Shown: piece by piece, positions 2 through 63,731 of the stretch
Layout of the letters: every line of letters starts with the position of its first letter
How positions within the stretch are numbered: the stretch's first letter is position 1
Virus record (IMG/VR): IMGVR_UViG_2541047715_000004
DNA: 64,000 bases
DNA from: a virus
Lineage: Duplodnaviria; Heunggongvirae; Uroviricota; Caudoviricetes
Reading direction: 5' to 3' (one strand)
Position numbers and translations under genes: made by a program
Notes under the pieces: generated by a model
Told to the model about the DNA's origin: nothing
Databases searched by the model: none
What the model saw: only the letters and a program-made list of their open reading frames with translations

Positions 2-649
2 AGCACCACAACAAAAGACCTGATGACGCTGAAATGGGATGCGCTAAATATTCTGGTAAATGCCGTCATTAATGGCAGTCTTGGAGTTGGTACGACGAAT
101 GCGTTAGGTGGTAGCTCTATTGTTCTTGGTGATAATGACACCGGATTCAAACAGAATGGTGATGGTATTCTGGATGTTTACGCTAATAGTCAGCGAGTAT
201 TCCGCTTTCAGAATGGAGTTGCTATTGCTTTTAAAAACATTCAGGCTGGTGATAGTAAAAAGTTCTCGCTATCCAGCTCCAACACCTCCACAAAGAATGC
301 AACGTTTAATTTATGGGGTGCTTCAACCCGTCCAGTAGTTGCAGAGTTAGGCGATGAGGCAGGATGGCATTTCTATAGCCAGCGAAATACAGATAACTCG
401 GTAATATTTTCTGTTAACGGTCAGATACAGCCCAACAACTGGGGGAATTTTGATTCACGCTATGTAAAAGATGTTCGCCTGGGTACGCGAGTTGTTCAAT
501 TGATGGCGCGTGGTGGTCGTTATGAAAAAGCCGGACACGCAATTACCGGATTAAGAATCATTGGTGAAGTAGATGGCGATGATGAAGCCATCTTCAGGCC
601 AATACAAAAATACATCAATGGCACATGGTATAACGTCGCACAGGTGTAA
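2..649 (+). CDS. tail fiber protein, C-terminal part (gene starts upstream of window)
   Basis: Reading frame open to window start; Gly/Ser/Asn/Thr-rich sequence; immediately followed by a Tfa-type chaperone gene. Confidence 0.55.
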   Translation, partial: STTTKDLMTLKWDALNILVNAVINGSLGVGTTNALGGSSIVLGDNDTGFKQNGDGILDVYANSQRVFRFQNGVAIAFKNIQAGDSKKFSLSSSNTSTKNATFNLWGASTRPVVAELGDEAGWHFYSQRNTDNSVIFSVNGQIQPNNWGNFDSRYVKDVRLGTRVVQLMARGGRYEKAGHAITGLRIIGEVDGDDEAIFRPIQKYINGTWYNVAQV

Positions 650-1180
650 ATGATGCAGCATTTAAAAAATATTAAGTCTGGAAATCCTAAAACGAAAGAA
701 CAATATCAGCTAACAAAGAATTTTGATGTTATCTGGTTATGGTCCGAAGACGGAAAAAACTGGTATGAGGAAGTGAAGAACTTTCAGCCAGACACAATAA
801 AGATTGTTTACGATGCAAATAATATTATTGTCGCCATCACCAAAGATGCCTCCACGCTTAACCCTGAAGGTTATAGCGTCGTTGAGGTTCCAGATATTAC
901 AGCCAACCGCCGCGCTGATGATTCCGGTAAGTGGATGTTTAGGGACGGAGCTGTGGTTAAACGGATTTATACGGCAGACGAGCAACAACAACAGGCCGAA
1001 TCACAAAAGGCCGCGTTGCTTTCTGAAGCTGAAAGCGTTATTCAGCCACTGGAACGCGCTGTCAGGCTGAATATGGCGACGGATGAGGAGCGTACACGAC
1101 TGGAGTCATGGGAACGCTACAGCGTTCTGGTCAACCGTGTGGATACAGCAAAGCCCGAATGGCCACAAAAGCCTGAATAA
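650..1180 (+). CDS. tfa: tail fiber assembly protein (Tfa-like chaperone)
   Basis: 176 aa; start abuts stop of fiber gene; N-terminal region typical of Tfa/gpU/gpG family chaperones. Confidence 0.65.
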
Positions 1181-1342
1181 AAATTAAGGCCCGCTATCGG
1201 GCCTTGTCTCATTCATCATATTCAGCAATTGACCAAAAGGGTTGAGGAGCTTGAAACGAAGTTAAATTCACCTAAAGAATAAACAACTTCAATCGGGGCT
1301 GGAGCTAAACCAGCCCCTGCTTAAAAGTATAAGGATATATTT

Positions 1343-1597
1343 ATGAGCTATGGTGCACAGGTTTGGTCGCCATCAAGACAGGAGATGGTCAATGCGTTGG
1401 CCCCTGTTTATTACCTCGATTATTTTACTCCCTCTGGTTCAGGAAGTAGAACATATGAGGTTGAGGCGGGATTGGGAATCGACTATTACATAATGGACGT
1501 AACCAATGGAAAGTACACAAGTCTTACGGTTTCTGGAAATACCATTTCGTGGTCTGGAGCTAGTGGTAATTTAAACATATTGGTTTTTCAAAAATAA
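1343..1597 (+). CDS. hypothetical protein, paralog of 59078..59359
   Basis: 84 aa; shares ...FxPxxxDxFTxSGSxxTY...ISWSG... pattern with ORF 59078..59359. Confidence 0.45.
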   Translation: MSYGAQVWSPSRQEMVNALAPVYYLDYFTPSGSGSRTYEVEAGLGIDYYIMDVTNGKYTSLTVSGNTISWSGASGNLNILVFQK

Positions 1598-1690
1598 TGT
1601 ACGGAAGCAAGATATATCGATCTGACGGGAAGGTCTGGATGTCTCCTTCTTTGTCTCCTATCGTTTTTTCAGAGAAAGCAGGTTGTTTCT

Positions 1691-2206
1691 TTGTCCGGCG
1701 GAACAGAGTTTAACACCAAAATATCTCCAGATCGTTCACCGATTATTTTTGTTGCCTATTCGAAAGCTGTTTCATTAATAGCCAACAGAATAGTGCGTAA
1801 CAACCAGGTGATTTACAGTTTCGGAGGTCAGGGTAGCGACTCTAGTGCCACGATATACGTATTTTCGAAAGGTATAGCCAAAAAAGAAACTTGGGGCATG
1901 AGTTTTTTCAATGCACAAGGGGAGGAAATCTATAATACGGCAAATATCCCACTTTCATTTACCTTTCTTAATAATACGGAGTGGAACAGCTCTGGAGGGC
2001 ATGTTTTTGATTACCCTCCAGCGATAATCCCAACATATGCGAATGTGTTCGCTGTTCCAGTACCGGGCGGAGCCATGACAATGGTTTATGGATATGCGGC
2101 ATATGGAAATACTGTTAGCTCGATATTCGTAAACCAACTTAATGGCGGCCATAGTTTTAGCGTAAATGGCAGAGTACCGGTAATAAATAGAAATCTGTAT
2201 AACTGA
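1691..2206 (+). CDS. hypothetical protein, paralog of 59362..59976; 5-prime end ambiguous
   Basis: ORF begins at TTG; an ATG at 1597 in another frame encodes the paralog-like N-terminus (SDGKVWMSP...CFFV) and stops after about 38 codons. Confidence 0.4.
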   Translation: MSGGTEFNTKISPDRSPIIFVAYSKAVSLIANRIVRNNQVIYSFGGQGSDSSATIYVFSKGIAKKETWGMSFFNAQGEEIYNTANIPLSFTFLNNTEWNSSGGHVFDYPPAIIPTYANVFAVPVPGGAMTMVYGYAAYGNTVSSIFVNQLNGGHSFSVNGRVPVINRNLYN

Positions 2207-2213
2207 TGAGTAA

Positions 2214-2447
2214 ATGATGAAAAGATTATTTCTAACAATAGCTGTTGTTCTCTCTCTTACTGGCTGCCAGAAATTGCCGACACCTATATGTTATGGTGAA
2301 GCTATCATTGGTGGACAGGAGACAGTCATACCCATATATGCTGTTAAAAAAGTGAACGACTATACCTTATACAAAGCGGGTAGCATCTATAACTGGCGAT
2401 GGGTTGGAGTAGGTGCTTTCTCATCAATCGGTTGCAATGCTGAATGA
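2214..2447 (+). CDS. small lipoprotein (candidate superinfection-exclusion / receptor-blocking protein)
   Basis: 77 aa; signal peptide with lipobox LTGC; three Cys; lies between fiber genes and lysis genes. Confidence 0.55.
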   Translation: MMKRLFLTIAVVLSLTGCQKLPTPICYGEAIIGGQETVIPIYAVKKVNDYTLYKAGSIYNWRWVGVGAFSSIGCNAE

Positions 2448-2516: not shown

Positions 2517-2852
2517 ATGGAGGAAAACATGTCGAACGAGATGGCGGGCGTTACAACAGAGCAAGTTGAGCGTATTGCCGCGATCGTTGCTCGGGAGGTT
2601 GTTGGCAAATTAGGTAAAGAACTACGTGAAGAAATTGGCCAGGAGGTCAATGATCAGCTGAAAACCTACTTTGGTGATATGACCCCGGCGCAACATAGTA
2701 TTCAACACTCCAATCTGGACAAACTCCTTAACCGGTTAGATTCCATCTCAAGTGGGTTCTTTGGCGGCATTGTTTCTAAAATAACGTCGTTCATTATTAC
2801 CGCACTGCTTTTGGGGTTAGCCGCGTATGGCGTAAAAAGTGGACTGCAATAA
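2517..2852 (+). CDS. membrane protein with C-terminal TM helix (possible holin/antiholin)
   Basis: 111 aa; hydrophobic C-terminus ITSFIITALLLGLAAYGV; first gene of a lysis-like cluster. Confidence 0.3.
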   Translation: MEENMSNEMAGVTTEQVERIAAIVAREVVGKLGKELREEIGQEVNDQLKTYFGDMTPAQHSIQHSNLDKLLNRLDSISSGFFGGIVSKITSFIITALLLGLAAYGVKSGLQ

Positions 2853-2865
2853 CAGGAGATCAAGG

Positions 2866-3558
2866 ATGAAGACTCCGAGAGGCATTCGTAATAATAACCC
2901 CGGTAATCTTGATAAAGGATCACCGTGGCAAGGTCTGGTTGCGAATCCAGACGAACCGCGCTTTTGCACGTTTAAAGACCCTGTTTGGGGGATTCGTGCG
3001 CTGGCGGTGACTCTAATTACCTACCACGACAAACGTCGCGCAAAAGACGGCTCAAGTATCGATACCATTCGTGAAGTTATTGAACGTTGGGCACCGCCGA
3101 ATGAAAACAATACTGACGCCTACATTAATGAGGTGTCTAAAGCCGTTGGTGTAACCGCAGACATGATCATCGATCTGCATGATTACGACATCCTTCGACC
3201 TTTGGTTGAGGCAATCATTCGCCACGAGAATGGCCGAGGCCCGCTAAAAACGCTGAACACCTGGTATGCGGCAGAAGTTATTGAGGAAGGTCTGCGTCGA
3301 GCTGGCGTTGTTAAGCCGGTGAAAACCGTGAAGGCTGTTCCTGTAACTAAAGAAACCGCAGGCGCAACTGTTACAGCAGGTATTGGTCTGGCGCAGCTGG
3401 CCGATGTTATGCCGCAGGTTTCCGCTGCTATGGATAAAGCACAAGGTCATATCTCTAGCGGGGATACAGTACGCATCATCTTCGGTATTGCCACTATTGT
3501 TGTGGCAGGATTCATTGCCTGGTCGCAGGTAAGAAAACACCAGAAAGGGATGGTCTAA
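2866..3558 (+). CDS. putative lysis protein / endolysin-like with C-terminal membrane anchor
   Basis: Start moved to ATG 2866 after AGGAG; conserved GIRNNNPGNL motif; C-terminal TM helix; followed directly by spanin genes. Confidence 0.35.
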   Translation: MKTPRGIRNNNPGNLDKGSPWQGLVANPDEPRFCTFKDPVWGIRALAVTLITYHDKRRAKDGSSIDTIREVIERWAPPNENNTDAYINEVSKAVGVTADMIIDLHDYDILRPLVEAIIRHENGRGPLKTLNTWYAAEVIEEGLRRAGVVKPVKTVKAVPVTKETAGATVTAGIGLAQLADVMPQVSAAMDKAQGHISSGDTVRIIFGIATIVVAGFIAWSQVRKHQKGMV

Positions 3559-3559
3559 T

Positions 3560-3811
3560 ATGCTAGGCAGCCTGATGACAAAGCTAAAAGTTGCTTTGAT
3601 TACGCTGGCTGCCGTTCTTTTCGTTCTTGTCGGCGCTTACACGATGGGCGGGAATGCGGCGCGACGAGCAATGGAAGAGAAGGCAAAACAGGAAGACAGA
3701 AAACGACTTCAAAGCACAGTGGATGTCAAAAATGAAACGGTTAATGAAGTGCGGCAAAAAGATGCCTCTGGTGTTCATCGCGAGCTGTTTGATAAATGGG
3801 TGCGTGATTAA
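3560..3811 (+). CDS. i-spanin (Rz-like)
   Basis: 83 aa; N-terminal TM helix then charged coiled-coil-like region; partner lipoprotein ORF overlaps its 3-prime end in another frame. Confidence 0.55.
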   Translation: MLGSLMTKLKVALITLAAVLFVLVGAYTMGGNAARRAMEEKAKQEDRKRLQSTVDVKNETVNEVRQKDASGVHRELFDKWVRD

Positions 3812-29111: not shown

Positions 29112-29171
29112 AGTTTTCCTTTGAAGATAGTTGGACAGTTTCTGCAAAAGGCGGCTAATGCCGCCTTGAAA

Positions 29172-29396
29172 TCATTTACAACGATCAACCATTCGTTTGA
29201 TCTGTTTGGCATGGTTTTCGGGATTACCCGGAGTCGACCATACGCTCATTTGGTGAGTTTTGTGTTCACCTTCTGGATTACCGCATCGCAGTCTGCAAAA
29301 ACAATGTGCAGCACCACCAGCTGCTACCCAGATCCAGCCTTTACTTAATGCATAGTCAATGGCTGCTTGAATATGCTTATTCGGATGTTGCTTCAT
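29172..29396 (-). CDS. small Cys/His-rich hypothetical protein
   Basis: 74 aa ORF directly upstream of the AlpA-like gene on the same strand. Confidence 0.35.
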   Translation of the reverse strand: MKQHPNKHIQAAIDYALSKGWIWVAAGGAAHCFCRLRCGNPEGEHKTHQMSVWSTPGNPENHAKQIKRMVDRCK

Positions 29397-29650
29397 TCGC
29401 CTCCGATAATAGTATTCTATTCACAGTGTTGACATCTGTCAACGGCGACTGAATTTCATCCGTTCATGCCACACCCCCATCCATCTCATGTATGTGACCT
29501 AAAGATGGTCAGCACAGCTTACCAAAATAAGACAACTAATTATCTTCGGTGATCTCAATATTTTCCCCTGAACAAAGTTGACATGACGCCATAAACCCGT
29601 TCTCTGTTTGATATAATTGATACAGATTTTATAAGTAGGAACCTATTAGA

Positions 29651-30082
29651 GTGAACACTGATATTTTTTCTAAAATCATGGCCGATCTGGAGTTCGACCG
29701 CGACAACCTTGAGGAAGTATGGCGTAAACAGCCACGGCTTTTAATGGAGTATGGGTCAAAACTAGCGCAGGCAGATCGAGATGTCGCAGAGGCAAAACTT
29801 AACCTTGAAGCTGTTGAAGCAAAGCTATACGACACAGAGCGTAAGAACTTGAGTATGAACGGCATTAAGTTCAACGAGTCTGTACTGGACGCTAAGGTTA
29901 AAACAAACCCACAGTATCTGTCTAAACGGCAGAAGTTGGATGAAGCACGGCACATCGCAGACATATACAAACATGCTGTCGCCGCCTTTTCGCATCGCCG
30001 AGACATGATCGTTCAGGCGTCAAAGATGGCCATCGTTGAATTAGAGCGATTAGGCTCTGAACGCTTTATTACTCCCCGTTGA
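29651..30082 (+). CDS. hypothetical coiled-coil protein
   Basis: 143 aa, charged, helical-looking. Confidence 0.4.
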   Translation: MNTDIFSKIMADLEFDRDNLEEVWRKQPRLLMEYGSKLAQADRDVAEAKLNLEAVEAKLYDTERKNLSMNGIKFNESVLDAKVKTNPQYLSKRQKLDEARHIADIYKHAVAAFSHRRDMIVQASKMAIVELERLGSERFITPR

Positions 30083-32501: not shown

Positions 32502-34841
32502 ATGGCAAAAGGAAAATCCGCACTGGCACTTGCTCTGAAAAAGAAAATCGGTAGCAACGACGAAATTCAGAAAGTAACTCATTGGATTGACACAGGCTTT
32601 CCTCCGTTAAACAAAGCTATTTCCGGTCGTTACGATGGCGGTTTCCCATGTGGTCGTATCGTAGAAGTATTCGGGCCACCAAGCGCGGGGAAATGTGTTA
32701 CCGCAGACACCATGCTGCTGACGGAGCGTGGAATGGTAACAGTGAAAGAGTTGTTTGAGATTGAAGGGTACAAAGCGACATGCACTACTCGCGATGTAGA
32801 GCATAACGTTGGACTCATCAATGAAAATGGCGTGATAGAGAAGACCTCACACCTGACATGGAACAACCGTCGCAAATTCAAGCGTATTAAGCTGGCATCA
32901 GGCGGTTATATCGAGGCTACGTTCCGTCACCCAATCCGTGTGGTTGACGACTTAGGTAATGTCGTCTGGCGACATGCTGAAAAAATCAGTGTAGGCGACA
33001 CGATTCCTTCAATGGTTGGCACACATCAATTCGGCGATCAGCACCTGGATGCCAATATCGCAAAACTGATGGGCTATTTAATTGCTGACGGATACGTGGC
33101 CTCTGAAAATTCAGTGAATTTTTCTAACACAGATCCTTTCATCAAGGATGAGTACTACCGCCTCATTTCGCTGGTATCAGACAAGATGCCAGTTACGAGA
33201 AAACATAACGGCTCGGAAGACCATGTGCTGTTTAGCAAAGAGGTGCGTTCGCTGCTTTTTAAAGAATATGGTCTGGAGTATGAGAAAGCTGCTGGCAAGC
33301 AGGTTCCGTTGAGTGTGCGTCGCGCCAATAGCGAGGCTCAAATTGCATTCCTTCGCGGCTACTTTGAGCTGGAATGCCACGTCAATGATGGTCGCTGCAT
33401 TGAGGTTGTGAGCGCGAGTGGGCTGCTGCTACAGCAAATTCGCCTCATGCTCCTGAATCTGGGGATTACGTCAACTATCTCTGAAAAACACGTCGCGGGT
33501 TATGAAAATACATATTACCGGCTGTCATTCAGTGGCTCTAATTACGACCTTTTTCTGTCAACGATTGGTTTCGAATCTCCGGCACGTTTATCAGTGGCAA
33601 CCAAACGGGACATTGGTTTTGACCGCACTTACTCAGGCTATGTTCCGCACATCAGCGGCTTAGTGAAATCACTCTACGAGTCGCTCACCAAGACCACCCG
33701 TGAAGACTACGCTCTGGTAGACCACGTTATTGGCCGCGGCGATCGTGTCGGAATAGACAAACTGCGAGAAATCTATGTCTCCTTCATTGGCAGAAAGAAT
33801 CGTTTTAACGAGCATCTGTTTGCACAACTGGCAGCGGTAATTGGCTCTAACTTGTTCTACGACGAAGTCGTGGCTATTGAGGAAGGTGAAGCACCAACGT
33901 TCGACGTAGCGATGCCGGAAACACACTCTTTCTGGTCTAACGGGATTATCAGCCACAACACATTCCTTGCAACAGCAGCGATGATCTCCGCTCAAAAACA
34001 AGATGGTCTGGCGGTATTCCTCGATCATGAAAACAGTTTTGACGTTGGCCTGGCTGTAGCCAATGGCCTGAACGCAGATGAGGATGACGGTCAGTGGGTA
34101 TACAAGCAGCCAGATACCTTCGAAGACTCTGTAGAGTTGATCGGCACAATACTTAAATTGGTTCGTGATGAAGAGCTTATCCCCGAATCAGCACCTATCT
34201 GTATCGTGGCTGACTCTCTTGCGTCTATGGTTCCGAACTCCAAAGCCGAGAAGTTCGAAAAGATGGCTGAAGGCACAGCCAAAGACAAAGATCAGCTAAA
34301 CATGAACGACAATACGGCACTGGCTCGTGCGACGAGTGCGAACTTCCCTACTCTGGCTTTGTGGGCACGCAAATACAACGCCTGCATCATCTTCTTGAAT
34401 CAGGTTCGCACAAAAATCGGTGTAATGTTTGGCGACCCTACTACGTCGCCAGGTGGAGATTCACCGAAGTTCTACGCTTCTGTACGTATCCGTCTTGGTG
34501 CATCGGTGATGAAGGATGGTAAAGAGAAGATCGGCCAGGACGTAGGCGCAGAATGCATCAAAAACAAAGTTGCACCACCGTATGGCAAATGCACCTGGAA
34601 ATTCTACTTCGATCCTACTCGTGGCCTCGACGTTATCGAATCGCTCGTCGAGTACATGCTGGAAGAAGGATACCTGCCAAAGAACGCCAGCGGGCGAGTT
34701 GAAATTGGTGACAAGAAATACACCAAATCGCAGATCGTCGAGATGTATCGGGAGAAGCCACTGGCTGAAATCATTGCGGCTTTGCAGGCAATCGACGACC
34801 GAAGAGCAAAAGACAACCCCACCGAGCCAGTAGAAGAGTAA
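32502..34841 (+). CDS. RecA/UvsX-like recombinase containing an intein
   Basis: Exteins (64 + 293 aa) rejoin to GPPSAGK-TFLATAAM Walker A; RecA-like C-terminal region. Confidence 0.8.
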   Translation: MAKGKSALALALKKKIGSNDEIQKVTHWIDTGFPPLNKAISGRYDGGFPCGRIVEVFGPPSAGKCVTADTMLLTERGMVTVKELFEIEGYKATCTTRDVEHNVGLINENGVIEKTSHLTWNNRRKFKRIKLASGGYIEATFRHPIRVVDDLGNVVWRHAEKISVGDTIPSMVGTHQFGDQHLDANIAKLMGYLIADGYVASENSVNFSNTDPFIKDEYYRLISLVSDKMPVTRKHNGSEDHVLFSKEVRSLLFKEYGLEYEKAAGKQVPLSVRRANSEAQIAFLRGYFELECHVNDGRCIEVVSASGLLLQQIRLMLLNLGITSTISEKHVAGYENTYYRLSFSGSNYDLFLSTIGFESPARLSVATKRDIGFDRTYSGYVPHISGLVKSLYESLTKTTREDYALVDHVIGRGDRVGIDKLREIYVSFIGRKNRFNEHLFAQLAAVIGSNLFYDEVVAIEEGEAPTFDVAMPETHSFWSNGIISHNTFLATAAMISAQKQDGLAVFLDHENSFDVGLAVANGLNADEDDGQWVYKQPDTFEDSVELIGTILKLVRDEELIPESAPICIVADSLASMVPNSKAEKFEKMAEGTAKDKDQLNMNDNTALARATSANFPTLALWARKYNACIIFLNQVRTKIGVMFGDPTTSPGGDSPKFYASVRIRLGASVMKDGKEKIGQDVGAECIKNKVAPPYGKCTWKFYFDPTRGLDVIESLVEYMLEEGYLPKNASGRVEIGDKKYTKSQIVEMYREKPLAEIIAALQAIDDRRAKDNPTEPVEE
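32694..33959 (+). mobile_element. intein with LAGLIDADG homing-endonuclease domain
   Basis: Starts with Cys (CVTADTML), TFRH block B, LMGYLIADGYV and FLRGYFELECHV motifs, ends ...GIISHN followed by Thr. Confidence 0.75.
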
Positions 34842-59077: not shown

Positions 59078-59359
59078 ATGGCATACGGTACAGGGATTTA
59101 CAACAATAAAGGAATTAACGTTACTGGCTTCCTTACACCTATTTTTTTTCTTGATCGATTTACGGCGTCATCAGGCTCTAAGACGTACTCTAATCCGCCA
59201 CCGGGTAAATCACTACATGCCGTGTGGTCATTAATGCCTCTTAACAACGACAACTACATCAATTTACCTGTTCCAAATGTTACTATTAATGGAAATACGG
59301 TTAGTTGGTCAAATTTATATACGGGGCTTGGTTCTTACATATACACATACTGGGGATAA
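59078..59359 (+). CDS. hypothetical protein, paralog of 1343..1597
   Basis: 93 aa; shared FLDxFTxSxGSKTY...TVSWS pattern. Confidence 0.45.
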   Translation: MAYGTGIYNNKGINVTGFLTPIFFLDRFTASSGSKTYSNPPPGKSLHAVWSLMPLNNDNYINLPVPNVTINGNTVSWSNLYTGLGSYIYTYWG

Positions 59360-59361
59360 TT

Positions 59362-59976
59362 ATGTTCGGGATGTCAATTACTCAATCAGATGGAAGTTTG
59401 TGGATGAGTCCTGAATTTACTCCGCAAAATCTGATTAATAAAGGGACAATGTCTACATCTAAAGGTTCTGTTTTTCAAACATCAATCCCATCAAACAAAT
59501 CATGCTTTTTCTTCATAAAAAGCAGCAATAAGGCGAACATGATGTTTATTCATGAACATAGTAACGGATACAATGCTCTCAGATTGCATCAGGTAAATGG
59601 TAGCCCCGGAACAATAACAGTTTATGCTTTTTCTGATATGGTGTTACCACATTCTGGCTATGGCATTGCCATGTATAACAGCGCAGGCGCAATGGTGTAT
59701 CACGGTGAGATGATGCCCCTTGATGCAAAACTTATCACTATTACTGACCCACAATTTACAATAGATATGGGGTATCCGTGCGCAGTAATGCCTGCTATGG
59801 TTGGGGTTTATAACTATAGACGAACCGATTACGACAGACCTGTCTATGTAACTATGACCGGTGCAACTGGAAACCAAGTATATAACGGTCAATGGTATTC
59901 CGGTAATGTCACATGGGATATTAAGAAGATTTATACAAACAAAATCCTGGTTATAAATACCTCAAAGTATGATTAG
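59362..59976 (+). CDS. hypothetical protein, paralog of 1691..2206
   Basis: Start at ATG overlapping upstream stop (TAATTATG); shared SDGxxWMSP...CFF N-terminal pattern with region 1597..1715. Confidence 0.45.
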   Translation: MFGMSITQSDGSLWMSPEFTPQNLINKGTMSTSKGSVFQTSIPSNKSCFFFIKSSNKANMMFIHEHSNGYNALRLHQVNGSPGTITVYAFSDMVLPHSGYGIAMYNSAGAMVYHGEMMPLDAKLITITDPQFTIDMGYPCAVMPAMVGVYNYRRTDYDRPVYVTMTGATGNQVYNGQWYSGNVTWDIKKIYTNKILVINTSKYD

Positions 59977-60079: not shown

Positions 60080-60556
60080 ATGAATACAGCTCTTTCCATC
60101 ATCGACGATACCAACTCAAACACTGCTATCGATTATCGTCAGGAAATGAACGTCATCCACGAAATCGTAGCCGAGTGCGAGAAAGAGATCGCCTTCATGT
60201 ATCAGGTTCACGACTTCGTTTATGGCGACGAACGCCACAACATGATTAATCGCCTGCTGCAACTGAACCATCGACCAGATGAAGAACGCTCACGTTTGAA
60301 TCGAGCTTGGCTGGATAAAGTCGATCTGGAATGGGTGAAACAGAATATTTGGGCCGAGTACTGGAGGAAGGTCACGGATATGACTAACGTTTTGCTGATC
60401 ATGCCAGCTTCCCGTCGCGACGAGTGGCGTGAGCAGTTTATAGAGGGCAAACAGGAAGTCATCAAAACTGACAGAACCGGCTACCAGATGAAGGTTAAAG
60501 AGTTCGTTGGTGTACCTGAGTTCAAAGTGGATACAAACATCCCTACGATGGTTTGA
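60080..60556 (+). CDS. hypothetical protein convergent with hsdR
   Basis: 158 aa ORF. Confidence 0.4.
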   Translation: MNTALSIIDDTNSNTAIDYRQEMNVIHEIVAECEKEIAFMYQVHDFVYGDERHNMINRLLQLNHRPDEERSRLNRAWLDKVDLEWVKQNIWAEYWRKVTDMTNVLLIMPASRRDEWREQFIEGKQEVIKTDRTGYQMKVKEFVGVPEFKVDTNIPTMV

Positions 60557-60614: not shown

Positions 60615-63600
60615 CTATATCTGCCCACCTACTCCTTTGAACTTTTCAATAAACGTGACGATTTTCTGGAAAACGGTCTGTTTTTTCGTTTTATATTGCG
60701 GGTTTAACGGACTAAGTTTTGGTAATGTCTCGTTTAATTCTGTGCCATTTTCGGTGGCGTATTCGCGTTTTAAAGACGTGCGAATATAGCGTTTCGCCGC
60801 CTCTTCATTGAGATTTTCTTCTTTTATCAATGCTTCTGCTTCACGTTGCTGTTCGCGTTGAGCAAACGTAAAGAATGCCTCAATGATACTGGCTTTGTCT
60901 GGTAAATCATCCAGGTTCGTTTGCTGAATAAAATCGACCACCAGGCCCTCTTTCGCCCGGTTCCCCAGGCTTGAACGAATTAAGCGTTTGACCTCTTCGA
61001 TCATTTCGCCCTTGCCTTTATTTTGTCTGTTGTGTTCGAAAATCAGTCCAAGGATATAATCCAGGTTTATTTCCTGAGACTTCAGCAAATCGACCTCAAA
61101 AACTACGTCATCCCAGTCAGTGGTTGATTTCTCTTTTTTCTCAGCTTCTTTCTCACGGCGCTGCCAGTCGCGAATATCGTTATAGGCAGAACGATAATCC
61201 TGAATCTTGCGTTCAGCAGGGAGACGAATTGTTTGCAATTCAGCGAACTTTTCATCATCCACATAATGTTCTGCTTTGAATTTTTCTACCGCAACAGGAT
61301 CGCTAAGATCGATTTGTTGCAGGGCTTTCAGCGTGGCAAATTCATCATAGTTTTGCAGGATGTTCTCGGCACGCAGGTATTCACCAAACAGTTTTACGAA
61401 GTCTTTCTTCTCTTTTTCACTTTCAATACTGGCAGGGTCAGGGAACCGTTGTTCCAGTTCTGAAACTACTGCCATAAAGCCGCGTTTAGCTTCACCAGTG
61501 GCAGCATCTGTAAAGCCTTCCATATACTCAGCATAACTCTTTTCTAACACCACATTTTTAGTATTTTTATCACCAAACAGCGTTATGGCATCAATGGTTG
61601 AGCGTTCCAGATCCCGAAAAGTGACGATGTTACCGAAGGTTTTAGTAGCGTCATAAATGCGGTTGGTACGGGAGAATGCCTGCATCAGGCCGTGAAAACG
61701 CAAGTTTTTATCGACGAATAGCGTGTTCAATGTTGGAGCGTCGAAGCCGGTTAAAAACATCCCAACGACAATTAACAGATCGATATCCTGATTTTTAACC
61801 CGTTGGGCTAAATCACGATAGTAGTTCTGAAAACCGTTACTGTCGGTGCTGAAGTTAGTTTTAAAATAGCTGTTATACTCACGAATTGCAGCGTCAAGAA
61901 ACTCTTTAGCACTGCTGTCCATTGCGCTGGTATCAAAAGTTTCATCGGAAATTTCACCAATGGCATTTTGTTCTTCATTGGCGGCAAAGGAGAAGATTGT
62001 TGCAACACGCAGCGGTTTATAGGTAGCCGATTTATTAGCTGCTTCCTCTTGTAACCGTTTAAACGTCGCGTAATAGGCTTTCGCGGCATCCACGCTACTC
62101 ACTGCCAGCATGGCATTAAAGCCTTTGGAACCTGGGAAAGTACGGTGGGTCTTCTGGCGGAAGTTATTCAGAATATATTGCGTAATTTCCTGTATACGCA
62201 TGGGATGAAGAAATGCCTGCTGATTTTCAGCCGCACTCAGTTTTTTCTCGTCGGTTTCTGTCTCTAAAGATTTAAACTGTGGCCGCACATCGTTGTAGTC
62301 CACCTTGAATTTGAGCACTTTTTCATCACGAATCGCATCGGTAATTACATACGAATGCAATTCACGACCAAATACGCTGGCGGTCGTTTCTGAGCCTAAG
62401 GCGTTTTCCGGGAAAATAGGTGTGCCGGTAAAACCAAACTGATAATAGCGTTTGAATTTCTTCTTCAGGTTTTTCTGCGCTTCTCCAAACTGGCTGCGGT
62501 GACATTCATCAAATATAAACACCACTTGCTGATTGTATACAGGCAGGTCGCTTTCTGCTTTCATCAGGTTATTAAGTTTCTGAATAGTGGTGACGATAAT
62601 TTTGTTATCGTCCTTATCCAGATTGCGTTTAAGACCTGCGGTATTTTCCGAGCCGTTGACGCTGTCTGGCGAAAAACGCTTATATTCATTCATGGTCTGG
62701 TAATCGAGGTCTTTCCTGTCGACCACGAAGAAGACTTTATCAATAAAGTCCAGCTCTGTTGCCAGACGCGCGGCTTTAAAGCTGGTGAGGGTTTTACCTG
62801 AACCGGTAGTGTGCCAGATATACCCACCGCTTTCCGGTTTTGACCAGTTCTTCGCTGTAAAGGAACTCTTAATTTTCCACAGAATGCGCTCAGTGGCGGC
62901 AATCTGGTACGGTCGCATCACCAGTAGCGTTTGGCTAACATCGAATACGCTGTAGTTCACTAAGACATTAAGCAGGGTATGTTTCTGGAAAAAGGTGGCG
63001 GTAAAGTCTTTGAGGTCTTTAATCAGCGTGTTGTCTGATTTCGCCCAATTCATGGTGAAGTCAAAACTGTTTTTATCGCGCTTTGTCGTGTTGGCAAAGT
63101 AACGGGTATCGGTGCCGTTGGAAATGACAAACAGTTGCAGATACTTAAACAGAGAATTTTCGCTGTTAAAACTCTCTTTGCTGTAACGATGTATCTGGTT
63201 AAAGGCCTCACGAATCGCCACGCCGCGCTTTTTCAGTTCGATTTGTACCAGCGGTAAGCCATTAACCAGGATCGTGACGTCATAACGGTTAGCATGAGAA
63301 CCCGTCTGTTCAAACTGCTGGATAATCTGCACCTTGTTGCGCATGAGATTCTTTTTATCTATCAAATAGATGTTCTCAAGACGCTCGTCATCAAAAATAA
63401 AGTCGCAAATATAGTCGATATGGATTTTACGGGTCTTATCCAGGATGCCATCGCTCGGGTTATCCAGATACTGCTCCGTGAAACGCCGCCATTCGCTGTC
63501 ATTAAACACCACACCATTGAGGTTCTGAAGCTGTTCCCGAACGTTGGCCAGCATCGCCGACTGAGATTTTACGGAAATAAATTCATAGCCCTGATTCCGC

Positions 63601-63731
63601 AGATCCTGAATCAGTTCACGTTCCAGGTCCGATTCGCTCTGGTAGCTGTCGCCTGTTTGCTCGGCTTTGATGTACTTATCAAGAACGATAAAGTTATTGG
63701 ATTCAGCAATGGTGTGTGTCTGATGAGTCAT
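60615..63731 (-). CDS. hsdR: type I restriction enzyme R subunit (HsdR)
   Basis: 1038 aa; N-terminal PD-(D/E)xK-like nuclease segment ([19 protein letters not shown]), helicase motif I TTGSGKT, motif II FDECHRS. Confidence 0.85.

Follow-up and report, generated by a model that had tools for sequence, protein, structure and literature searches.

The window analysed here, a 64,000 nt stretch of the Caudoviricetes record IMGVR_UViG_2541047715_000004, is part of an SSU5/Cyrano-like phage-plasmid of Escherichia coli and carries two pairs of related genes 57 kb apart. The first pair consists of a small gene, A1 (1343..1597, + strand, 84 aa), and a larger gene, B1 (1597..2206, + strand), the ATG of which at 1597 overlaps the A1 stop codon (TAATG). 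In the second pair, A2 (59078..59359, + strand, 93 aa) has its stop codon at 59359 and is followed by B2 (59362..59976, + strand, 204 aa), which starts at 59362. The small subunits A1 and A2 match phrog_557 (E=2.4e-24 and E=6.1e-29, respectively) and the large subunits B1 and B2 match phrog_425 (E=5.3e-40 and E=2.2e-72, respectively); both large subunits are putative receptor-binding proteins (RBPs), of which B2 is intact and B1 is frameshifted in this sequence. Cassette 1 has a third gene, cor (2214..2447, + strand), which is intact and encodes a superinfection-exclusion lipoprotein (NCBIfam NF047972, 80.1 bits against a cut-off of 31; phrog_1119, E=8e-30) that begins MMKRLFLTIAVVLSLTGC and exhibits the lipobox LSLTGC. 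In cassette 2, no lipoprotein open reading frame (ORF) was found between 59976 and a DUF4942 gene fragment beginning at 60080.

The ORFs lie exactly where an original prediction, made from the DNA alone, had placed them, and its description of the pairs as paralogs that have diverged and share their order and orientation is borne out by the shared families phrog_557 and phrog_425 and by BLASTP. A1 and A2 are 34% identical over 79 aa (E=3e-11), and the main frame of B1 is 23% identical to B2 over 132 aa (E=1e-8). The similarity of the A1-B1 and A2-B2 pairs is far above chance: the pairwise alignment of the four proteins that had been proposed as a check was significant for A1/A2 and for B1/B2, and the opposite outcome, a lack of similarity between the pairs, was not observed.

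B1 is divided in the window between a 38-codon ORF (1597..1713), which begins MYGSKIYRSDGKVWMSP, and a 171-codon ORF opening with TTG (1691..2206) in the +1 frame, a frame that is open from 1625. The product of the short ORF matches the first 21 residues of B2 at 11 positions (52%, E=8e-8). Only its first 24 residues are native, and the resemblance of its terminal CFFV to CFFF in B2, which the original prediction took as paralog-like, is a coincidental match of out-of-frame sequence. RefSeq/PGAP starts B1 at an internal ATG (window 1639), giving a protein of 188 aa (segment 2917..2959 of the compared relative corresponds to window 1597..1639). The 14 residues ahead of that ATG are conserved in a 13-member alignment (M1, G3, I6, G11, W14), and the true start of B1 is therefore the ATG at 1597.

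The break in B1 is due to a homopolymer run at 1664..1669 (+ strand), where the window reads CGTTTTTTCAG with six T residues (T6) and two related plasmids aligned with it read CGTTTTTCAG with five (T5); this is the sole difference at the break. With T5 the ORF is continuous from the ATG at 1597 to 2206, and once one T is deleted from the window the resulting 202-aa protein matches its counterpart in NZ_CP061757 with 100% identity. The intact 202-aa form (P0024) represents 247 clustered sequences. Complete E. coli genomes and PLSDB plasmids were searched with a 61-nt probe spanning the T run, and all 68 genome records and all 73 plasmids retrieved matched in the 95–99% identity band, each of the 24 rows listed spanning 60 nt. 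There was no 100% match, and hence no T6 allele, in either set. The extra T is private to this sequence, and it can be stated with high confidence that B1 is inactivated here by that one base. Among the options offered in the original prediction, a frameshift through decay or sequencing error is the right one, although the lesion had been sought at 1680..1715, ~20–40 nt too far downstream.

The other options offered, a TTG start or a programmed frameshift, fit poorly. A homopolymer is a place where RNA polymerase or ribosomes can slip, and a weak AGG-containing sequence lies 8–9 nt ahead of the TTG at 1691, so that B1 might still be expressed by a programmed +1 frameshift, by transcriptional slippage on the T run, or as a shorter protein from that TTG. 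A recoding site should be conserved, however, and neither the break nor the slippery sequence is conserved in the homologues, all 68 genome records and 73 plasmids encoding a plain ORF. The direction is also wrong: codon starts move from 1 mod 3 (1597) to 2 mod 3 (1691), requiring a shift of +1, and a −1 slip on the U-rich heptamer U UUU UUC would lead into the third frame. T6 is short for efficient transcriptional slippage, and a TTG product would be without 31 N-terminal residues, including eight invariant positions (M1, G3, I6, G11, W14, S16, P17 and P21). Because the site is unconserved, the needed shift is +1 rather than −1 and the TTG product loses these eight positions, recoding was rejected, and expression of B1 by any of these routes is considered extremely improbable.

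Whether the extra T was gained by the molecule or by its sequence is more evenly balanced. A purely base-calling or assembly error at the homopolymer, with an intact B1 in the true molecule, is a substantial possibility that we place somewhat short of even: one extra base in a T5 run is the commonest type of sequencing error, the extra T occurs in no other sequence examined (68 genome records, 73 plasmids), and the rest of B1 is 100% identical to its intact relatives. Set against this is the indel pattern relative to the nearest plasmid used for comparison, pHH107-1 (NZ_CP116406). In the first 25 kb of the window there are 126 substitutions and a single indel, the extra T; in the remaining 34 kb (99.4% identity) there are three single-base indels, all intergenic, one in the terminator T-tail after ORF 32502..34841 and two upstream of hsdR. 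A generally error-prone assembly was rejected, as there are only four single-base indels in ~59 kb, three of them intergenic, and genuine variation that has passed through selection accounts for the pattern better than random base-calling error does. In addition, an AH04-type plasmid (NZ_CP081707, strain AH04) carries an independent B1 frameshift, a C inserted in GGAG-TGG outside any homopolymer (segment position ~3301, equivalent to window ~1981), which truncates B1 near residue 128 and indicates that B1 does get inactivated in nature. In this plasmid cor is still intact, though absent from the annotation table. Because of the indel pattern and this independent frameshift, we lean slightly toward a genuine mutation that inactivated B1 very recently in a plasmid-resident prophage.

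Two further observations concern the plasmids compared. AH02 and CT01 exhibited match statistics identical to those of the AH04 plasmid, the statistics alone having been compared. The window is mosaic with respect to NZ_CP116406 (otherwise 99.4–99.5% identical) at 25001..29672, where 25001..27656 is only 93% identical and ~27657..29671 is unmatched in the compared segment.

The two cassettes have different relatives. Cassette 1 corresponds to a locus of Salmonella phage SSU5 (SSU5_020-026) in which a tail protein, fibre, adhesin/assembly protein, A (SSU5_023), B (SSU5_024), Cor-like protein (SSU5_025) and holin follow one another in the order seen in the window. A1 is 68% identical to SSU5_023 and B1 is 76% identical to SSU5_024, both annotated as hypothetical only, and cassette 1 is the orthologous cassette; the 1-nt insertion is found only in the B1 of the window. 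The single match in SSU5 suggests that a second, B2-type cassette is absent there. The closest relatives of cassette 2 are the gp22-gp21 pair of the Nonagvirus phages JenP1, JenP2 and BRET and a pair in Shiga toxin (Stx) phages (Stx2 II C21-C22, phi24B). B2 shares 82% identity with the Nonagvirus protein and 61% with its Stx phage counterpart (that of phi24B included), and A2 is 76% identical to JenP2 gp22 and 67% identical to Stx2 II C21. JenP2 and Stx2 II have the same two-gene order as cassette 2 and likewise have no cor, but their pair abuts J, which encodes the central tail fibre, or a tail fibre gene, whereas in the window and in Cyrano the pair is embedded in a set of accessory genes, well removed from the tail genes.

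The T1 and N15 proteins constitute a third branch of the B family, at a greater distance. The T1 locus (J, ST32, ST31, Cor) and the N15 locus (gp21 to gp24, with gp22-gp23-gp24 corresponding to A, B and Cor) contain the same families (phrog_557, phrog_425 and phrog_1119; T1 ST31 matches phrog_425 with E=9e-68) in A-then-B order directly after J. Cor is adjacent as in cassette 1; cassette 2 differs from both in having no cor and in not lying beside tail genes. The T1 and N15 B proteins are longer (225–229 aa) and 21–26% identical to B1 and B2, with pairwise E-values from 0.1 to 4e-7. The A family can be aligned across A1, A2, T1 ST32, N15 gp22, SSU5_023, JenP2 gp22 and atuna gp16. The pair adjoins J in JenP2 (Nonagvirus) and atuna (Warwickvirus), on the strand opposite J in each, and follows the tail fibre gene in Stx2 II.

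To call the module duplicated is therefore misleading, and a recent in-genome duplication was rejected: the copies are only ~27–34% identical (~27% for B1/B2), and each is far closer to proteins of other phages. Both cassettes differ from their relatives by 0.10–0.24 non-synonymous differences per site with synonymous sites saturated, and the ratio of non-synonymous to synonymous divergence is 0.14 or less where computable, indicating strong purifying selection on both. From these comparisons the two copies are taken to be old, diverged and separately acquired members of one family.

Several relatives combine A and B in a single chain. When 1.84 billion representative proteins were searched with a profile, 168 B relatives were retrieved, mostly of 200–230 aa; approximately eight are 309–323 aa long, and in these the B match begins near residue 95–110. 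The N-terminal 95–100 residues of these fused proteins align with the A family (hhalign probability 97%, E=1e-10, columns 1–81 against 1–81), and one of them (P0081) matches phrog_557 at residues 1–80 and phrog_425 at residues 99–307. In a tblastn search, P0081 covered an A gene and a B gene collinearly in E. coli phages; in Pantoea phage Vid5 it covered a single fused gene, encoding 326 aa, which begins at the stop codon of a J-like gene on the same strand. The fused relatives measure about 307–326 aa overall, and the window encodes two polypeptides of 84–93 aa and 202–204 aa; the RBP of the solved Oekolampad complex is ~310 aa, with a poorly ordered tail-proximal part. The simplest reading of these alignments is that A represents the detached N-terminal domain of the single-chain relatives, in which case the pair of genes is best regarded as a single functional unit.

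The AlphaFold2 model of B2, built from a 13-sequence alignment, is all-beta, with a mean predicted local distance difference test score (pLDDT) of 89.8 and a predicted template modelling score of 0.84; the N-terminal 20 residues are of lower confidence. The model shares its fold with the solved Oekolampad RBP (PDB 9rpt chain C), the only strong structural match found for B. In a Foldseek search this chain ranked second, with the highest probability (0.95) and a weak E-value and TM-score, which probably explains why earlier authors reported no structural match for the two proteins upstream of Cor (PMC13164509). The A2 model is a small beta-sandwich (pLDDT 80). No relative was detected among PDB sequences, whether the query was B2, A2, a fused homologue or a profile of 52 B sequences, and scans of A1, A2, B1 and B2 against Pfam, NCBIfam and PADLOC returned nothing at an E-value of 0.1 or better, except a chance CAS_C match. 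B2 matches phrog_1265 partially (E=3.4e-6, residues 40–156), a match that B1 lacks; phrog_1265 is the family of Rtp44 (E=9e-98), an LptD-type binder. Alignment of the B profile with Rtp44 by hhalign gave a probability of 54% (E=1.3e-4), aligning a central motif, and on profile evidence the B family is a distant sister of the Rtp44 family, not a member of it.

This relationship bears on two groups of phages. A cor cassette of three genes has been described in T1-like phages (PMC13164509, 2026) and occurs in T1, HK022, N15, ES18 and phi80, all FhuA-dependent (PMC13164509, citing earlier work). The Oekolampad RBP and Rtp44, from small siphophages, belong to a different PHROG family (1265 rather than 425/557), consist of a single chain of ~310 aa rather than two gene products, and have LptD as the demonstrated receptor and Rtp45 as the exclusion lipoprotein. 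A recent preprint treats the FhuA-associated and LptD-associated families as unrelated; the modelled fold, shared by B with the only solved RBP from such a locus, would link them. In small siphophages, receptor specificity is located at a locus downstream of gpJ that encodes an RBP together with accessory and exclusion proteins (PMC8594841; 10.64898/2026.04.02.716166). T5 follows the same logic, with a separately encoded RBP (pb5) and a small lipoprotein (Llp) by which the receptor of pb5 is blocked on its periplasmic side.

The anatomy of the cassettes is established with high confidence, and in this phage-plasmid a known tail-tip cassette is probably present in two versions, each acquired separately and each specifying a split RBP, with B1 broken by the extra T. 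That A and B act together in receptor binding is favoured with a little less assurance. In the proposed mechanism, A would form the tail-proximal part and B the body facing the receptor, which would use a host outer-membrane protein as its terminal receptor. Cor, synthesised by the cell during infection or lysogeny, would obstruct that receptor on the periplasmic side, as do Llp of T5 and Rtp45. For cassette 1, the linkage to cor suggests by analogy that the receptor may be FhuA, the receptor in the Cor systems studied. The original prediction's fiber-associated or adhesin-like proteins come close to this: the genes occupy a receptor-specificity locus beside tail-tip or fibre genes in T1, N15, SSU5, JenP2, atuna, Vid5 and Stx2 II, and B has the fold of an RBP; the role itself is our inference.

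A number of observations weigh against this interpretation. Cassette 2 is outside the tail-gene cluster, 57 kb away among accessory genes, an unusual position for a virion gene, and no significant structural match was obtained for A2 modelled by itself. The Warwickviruses, which have B-family genes, reportedly do not require FhuA, and so the family is not FhuA-specific. The fused homologue gp23 goes unmentioned in the Vid5 virion proteome of 11 proteins, and the T1 cryo-electron microscopy map has no resolved distal tip. Finally, the authors of PMC13164509 guessed at a role in superinfection exclusion for the two proteins upstream of Cor.

This last suggestion leads to the alternative that A and B are accessory "moron" proteins of the membrane or outer membrane, acting with Cor in superinfection exclusion and made in the cell rather than in the virion. 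It accords with the position of A and B beside cor in T1, N15, SSU5 and cassette 1, with the placement of cassette 2 among accessory rather than tail genes, and with the orientation of the JenP2 and atuna pairs on the strand opposite J. The proteins themselves argue otherwise, as Cor has a clear lipobox but no signal peptide, lipobox or hydrophobic segment was detected in A1, A2, B1, B2, T1 ST31 and ST32, or N15 gp22 and gp23; their N termini are polar and their maximum 19-residue Kyte-Doolittle means are 0.54–1.38. The models of A2 and B2 depict soluble beta-sandwiches. The "outer membrane protein" label and the "membrane associated protein" label attached to the A and B families trace to unsupported early annotations and find no support in sequence or model. 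The only strong match of the B2 model is to an RBP, the fused A-B gene of Vid5 directly follows J on the same strand, and cassette 2 is entirely without cor. The Cyrano genes 88 and 89, which form cassette 2 in that phage, are missing from the genes that were listed as expressed in the LF82 lysogen, and their absence agrees better with a role in the lytic cycle than with that of an accessory gene; the Cyrano paper contains no virion proteomics. On balance, a moron function for A and B is unlikely.

B2 is named "cysteine peptidase family C39 domain-containing protein" (WP_000467663.1) in many RefSeq plasmids (e.g., NZ_CP103659, segment 1785..2399). This name looks wrong, given an all-beta sandwich model and no Pfam match at an E-value of 0.1 or better.

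A short motif recurs in both subunits, Y/W-G followed by three residues, a hydrophobic residue, three further residues and G, with P 5–9 residues on. It is found at the N terminus of A (1343..1410 and 59078..59145), at the N terminus of B (1597..1665 and 59362..59430) and in mid-B (~1886..1950 and ~59660..59725), and also in T1 ST31/ST32 and N15 gp22/gp23. The idea that A and the N- and C-terminal halves of B are repeats of one domain was rejected, as hhalign gave a probability of only 7% (E=0.005) over 21 columns.

The original prediction had placed copy 1 after tail fibre genes, and PHROG and Pfam matches upstream confirm this. A 208-aa ORF at 23..649 (+ strand) is the 3′ part of a tail fibre gene (phrog_454, E 2e-66; phrog_5454, E 6e-43), the equivalent coding sequence of NZ_CP116406 being annotated as a tail fiber protein, and it is followed at 650..1180 (+ strand) by a tail fibre assembly protein resembling the U′ chaperone of phage P1 (Pfam Caudo_TAP, E=2.7e-37; phrog_136, E=8e-82). 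Copy 1 thus adjoins a fibre gene and its assembly gene, as in SSU5. The 35 nt at 1181..1215, within which lies the GC-rich hairpin AAGGCCCGCTATCGGGCCTT, match the 3′ end of the U′ region in P1, P7 and RCS47 with 100% identity, and in many related plasmids the match to the window begins only at 1208. On sequence grounds, 1181..1215 looks like a recombination joint between fibre modules and the A1-B1-cor cassette.

Copy 2 is adjacent to a restriction locus, as had been predicted, but the link is incidental. Its neighbours are TerB/TciA-like and DUF3927 genes, a gene for an unassigned 189-aa protein and the DUF4942 fragment; the latter is the N-terminal part of a DUF4942/methyltransferase-like gene (60080..60556, 158-aa ORF, phrog_6263 profile positions 1–150 of 548) and precedes hsdR of a type I restriction-modification locus (60615..63731, − strand, 1038 aa). 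In Cyrano the DUF4942 gene following copy 2 is intact (CYRAN_90, 561 aa), and RefSeq labels the fragment a pseudogene in a related plasmid. A functional link between copy 2 and the restriction locus was therefore rejected, as the hsd genes simply interrupt a gene that in Cyrano follows copy 2 undisturbed.

Cassette 2 was found in 150 of 5426 complete E. coli genomes, on plasmids of ~101–121 kb, and is 899 nt long in every full-length row among the matches listed; cassette 1 was found in 66–68 of the complete E. coli genomes. Cyrano has cassette 2 and is without cassette 1, the assembly protein and cor, its fibre gene being followed directly by the holin gene. From these counts and the gene content of Cyrano, cassette 2 is read as a common element of the E. 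coli lineage and cassette 1 as a variable one that moves together with the fibre region. The separate searches (66–68 against ~150) suggest that both cassettes are present in up to ~45% of E. coli SSU5-like plasmids, co-occurrence having been seen directly only in the window and in NZ_CP116406. It is a rather doubtful proposition that E. coli SSU5-like phage-plasmids routinely carry two split RBPs, one cor-linked in the tail operon and one in a core cassette 57 kb away. If this were true, virions could use two terminal receptors or switch between them, and loss of one cassette by homopolymer slippage would retarget the phage rather than represent mere decay. The plasmid group would be a convenient system in which to ask whether one siphophage can carry two such binders. 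The original observation is correct and ordinary in meaning, the cassette having already been described in T1, N15, SSU5 and Stx phages, and the break, as a one-base lesion private to this sequence, matters little alone.

A lysis cassette directly follows cor (2517..3811), consisting of a holin (~2528..2852), an endolysin (~2865..3558) and an Rz spanin (3560..3811). It matches Cyrano CYRAN_22-24, and a pair encoding a GNAT toxin and a DUF1778 antitoxin is located downstream in relatives. Small unannotated genes flank the A-B pair of atuna (gp15, segment 3451..3720) and the fused A-B gene of Vid5 (gp24, segment 5989..6207), both of which are without cor; these could encode unrecognised exclusion proteins for other receptors.

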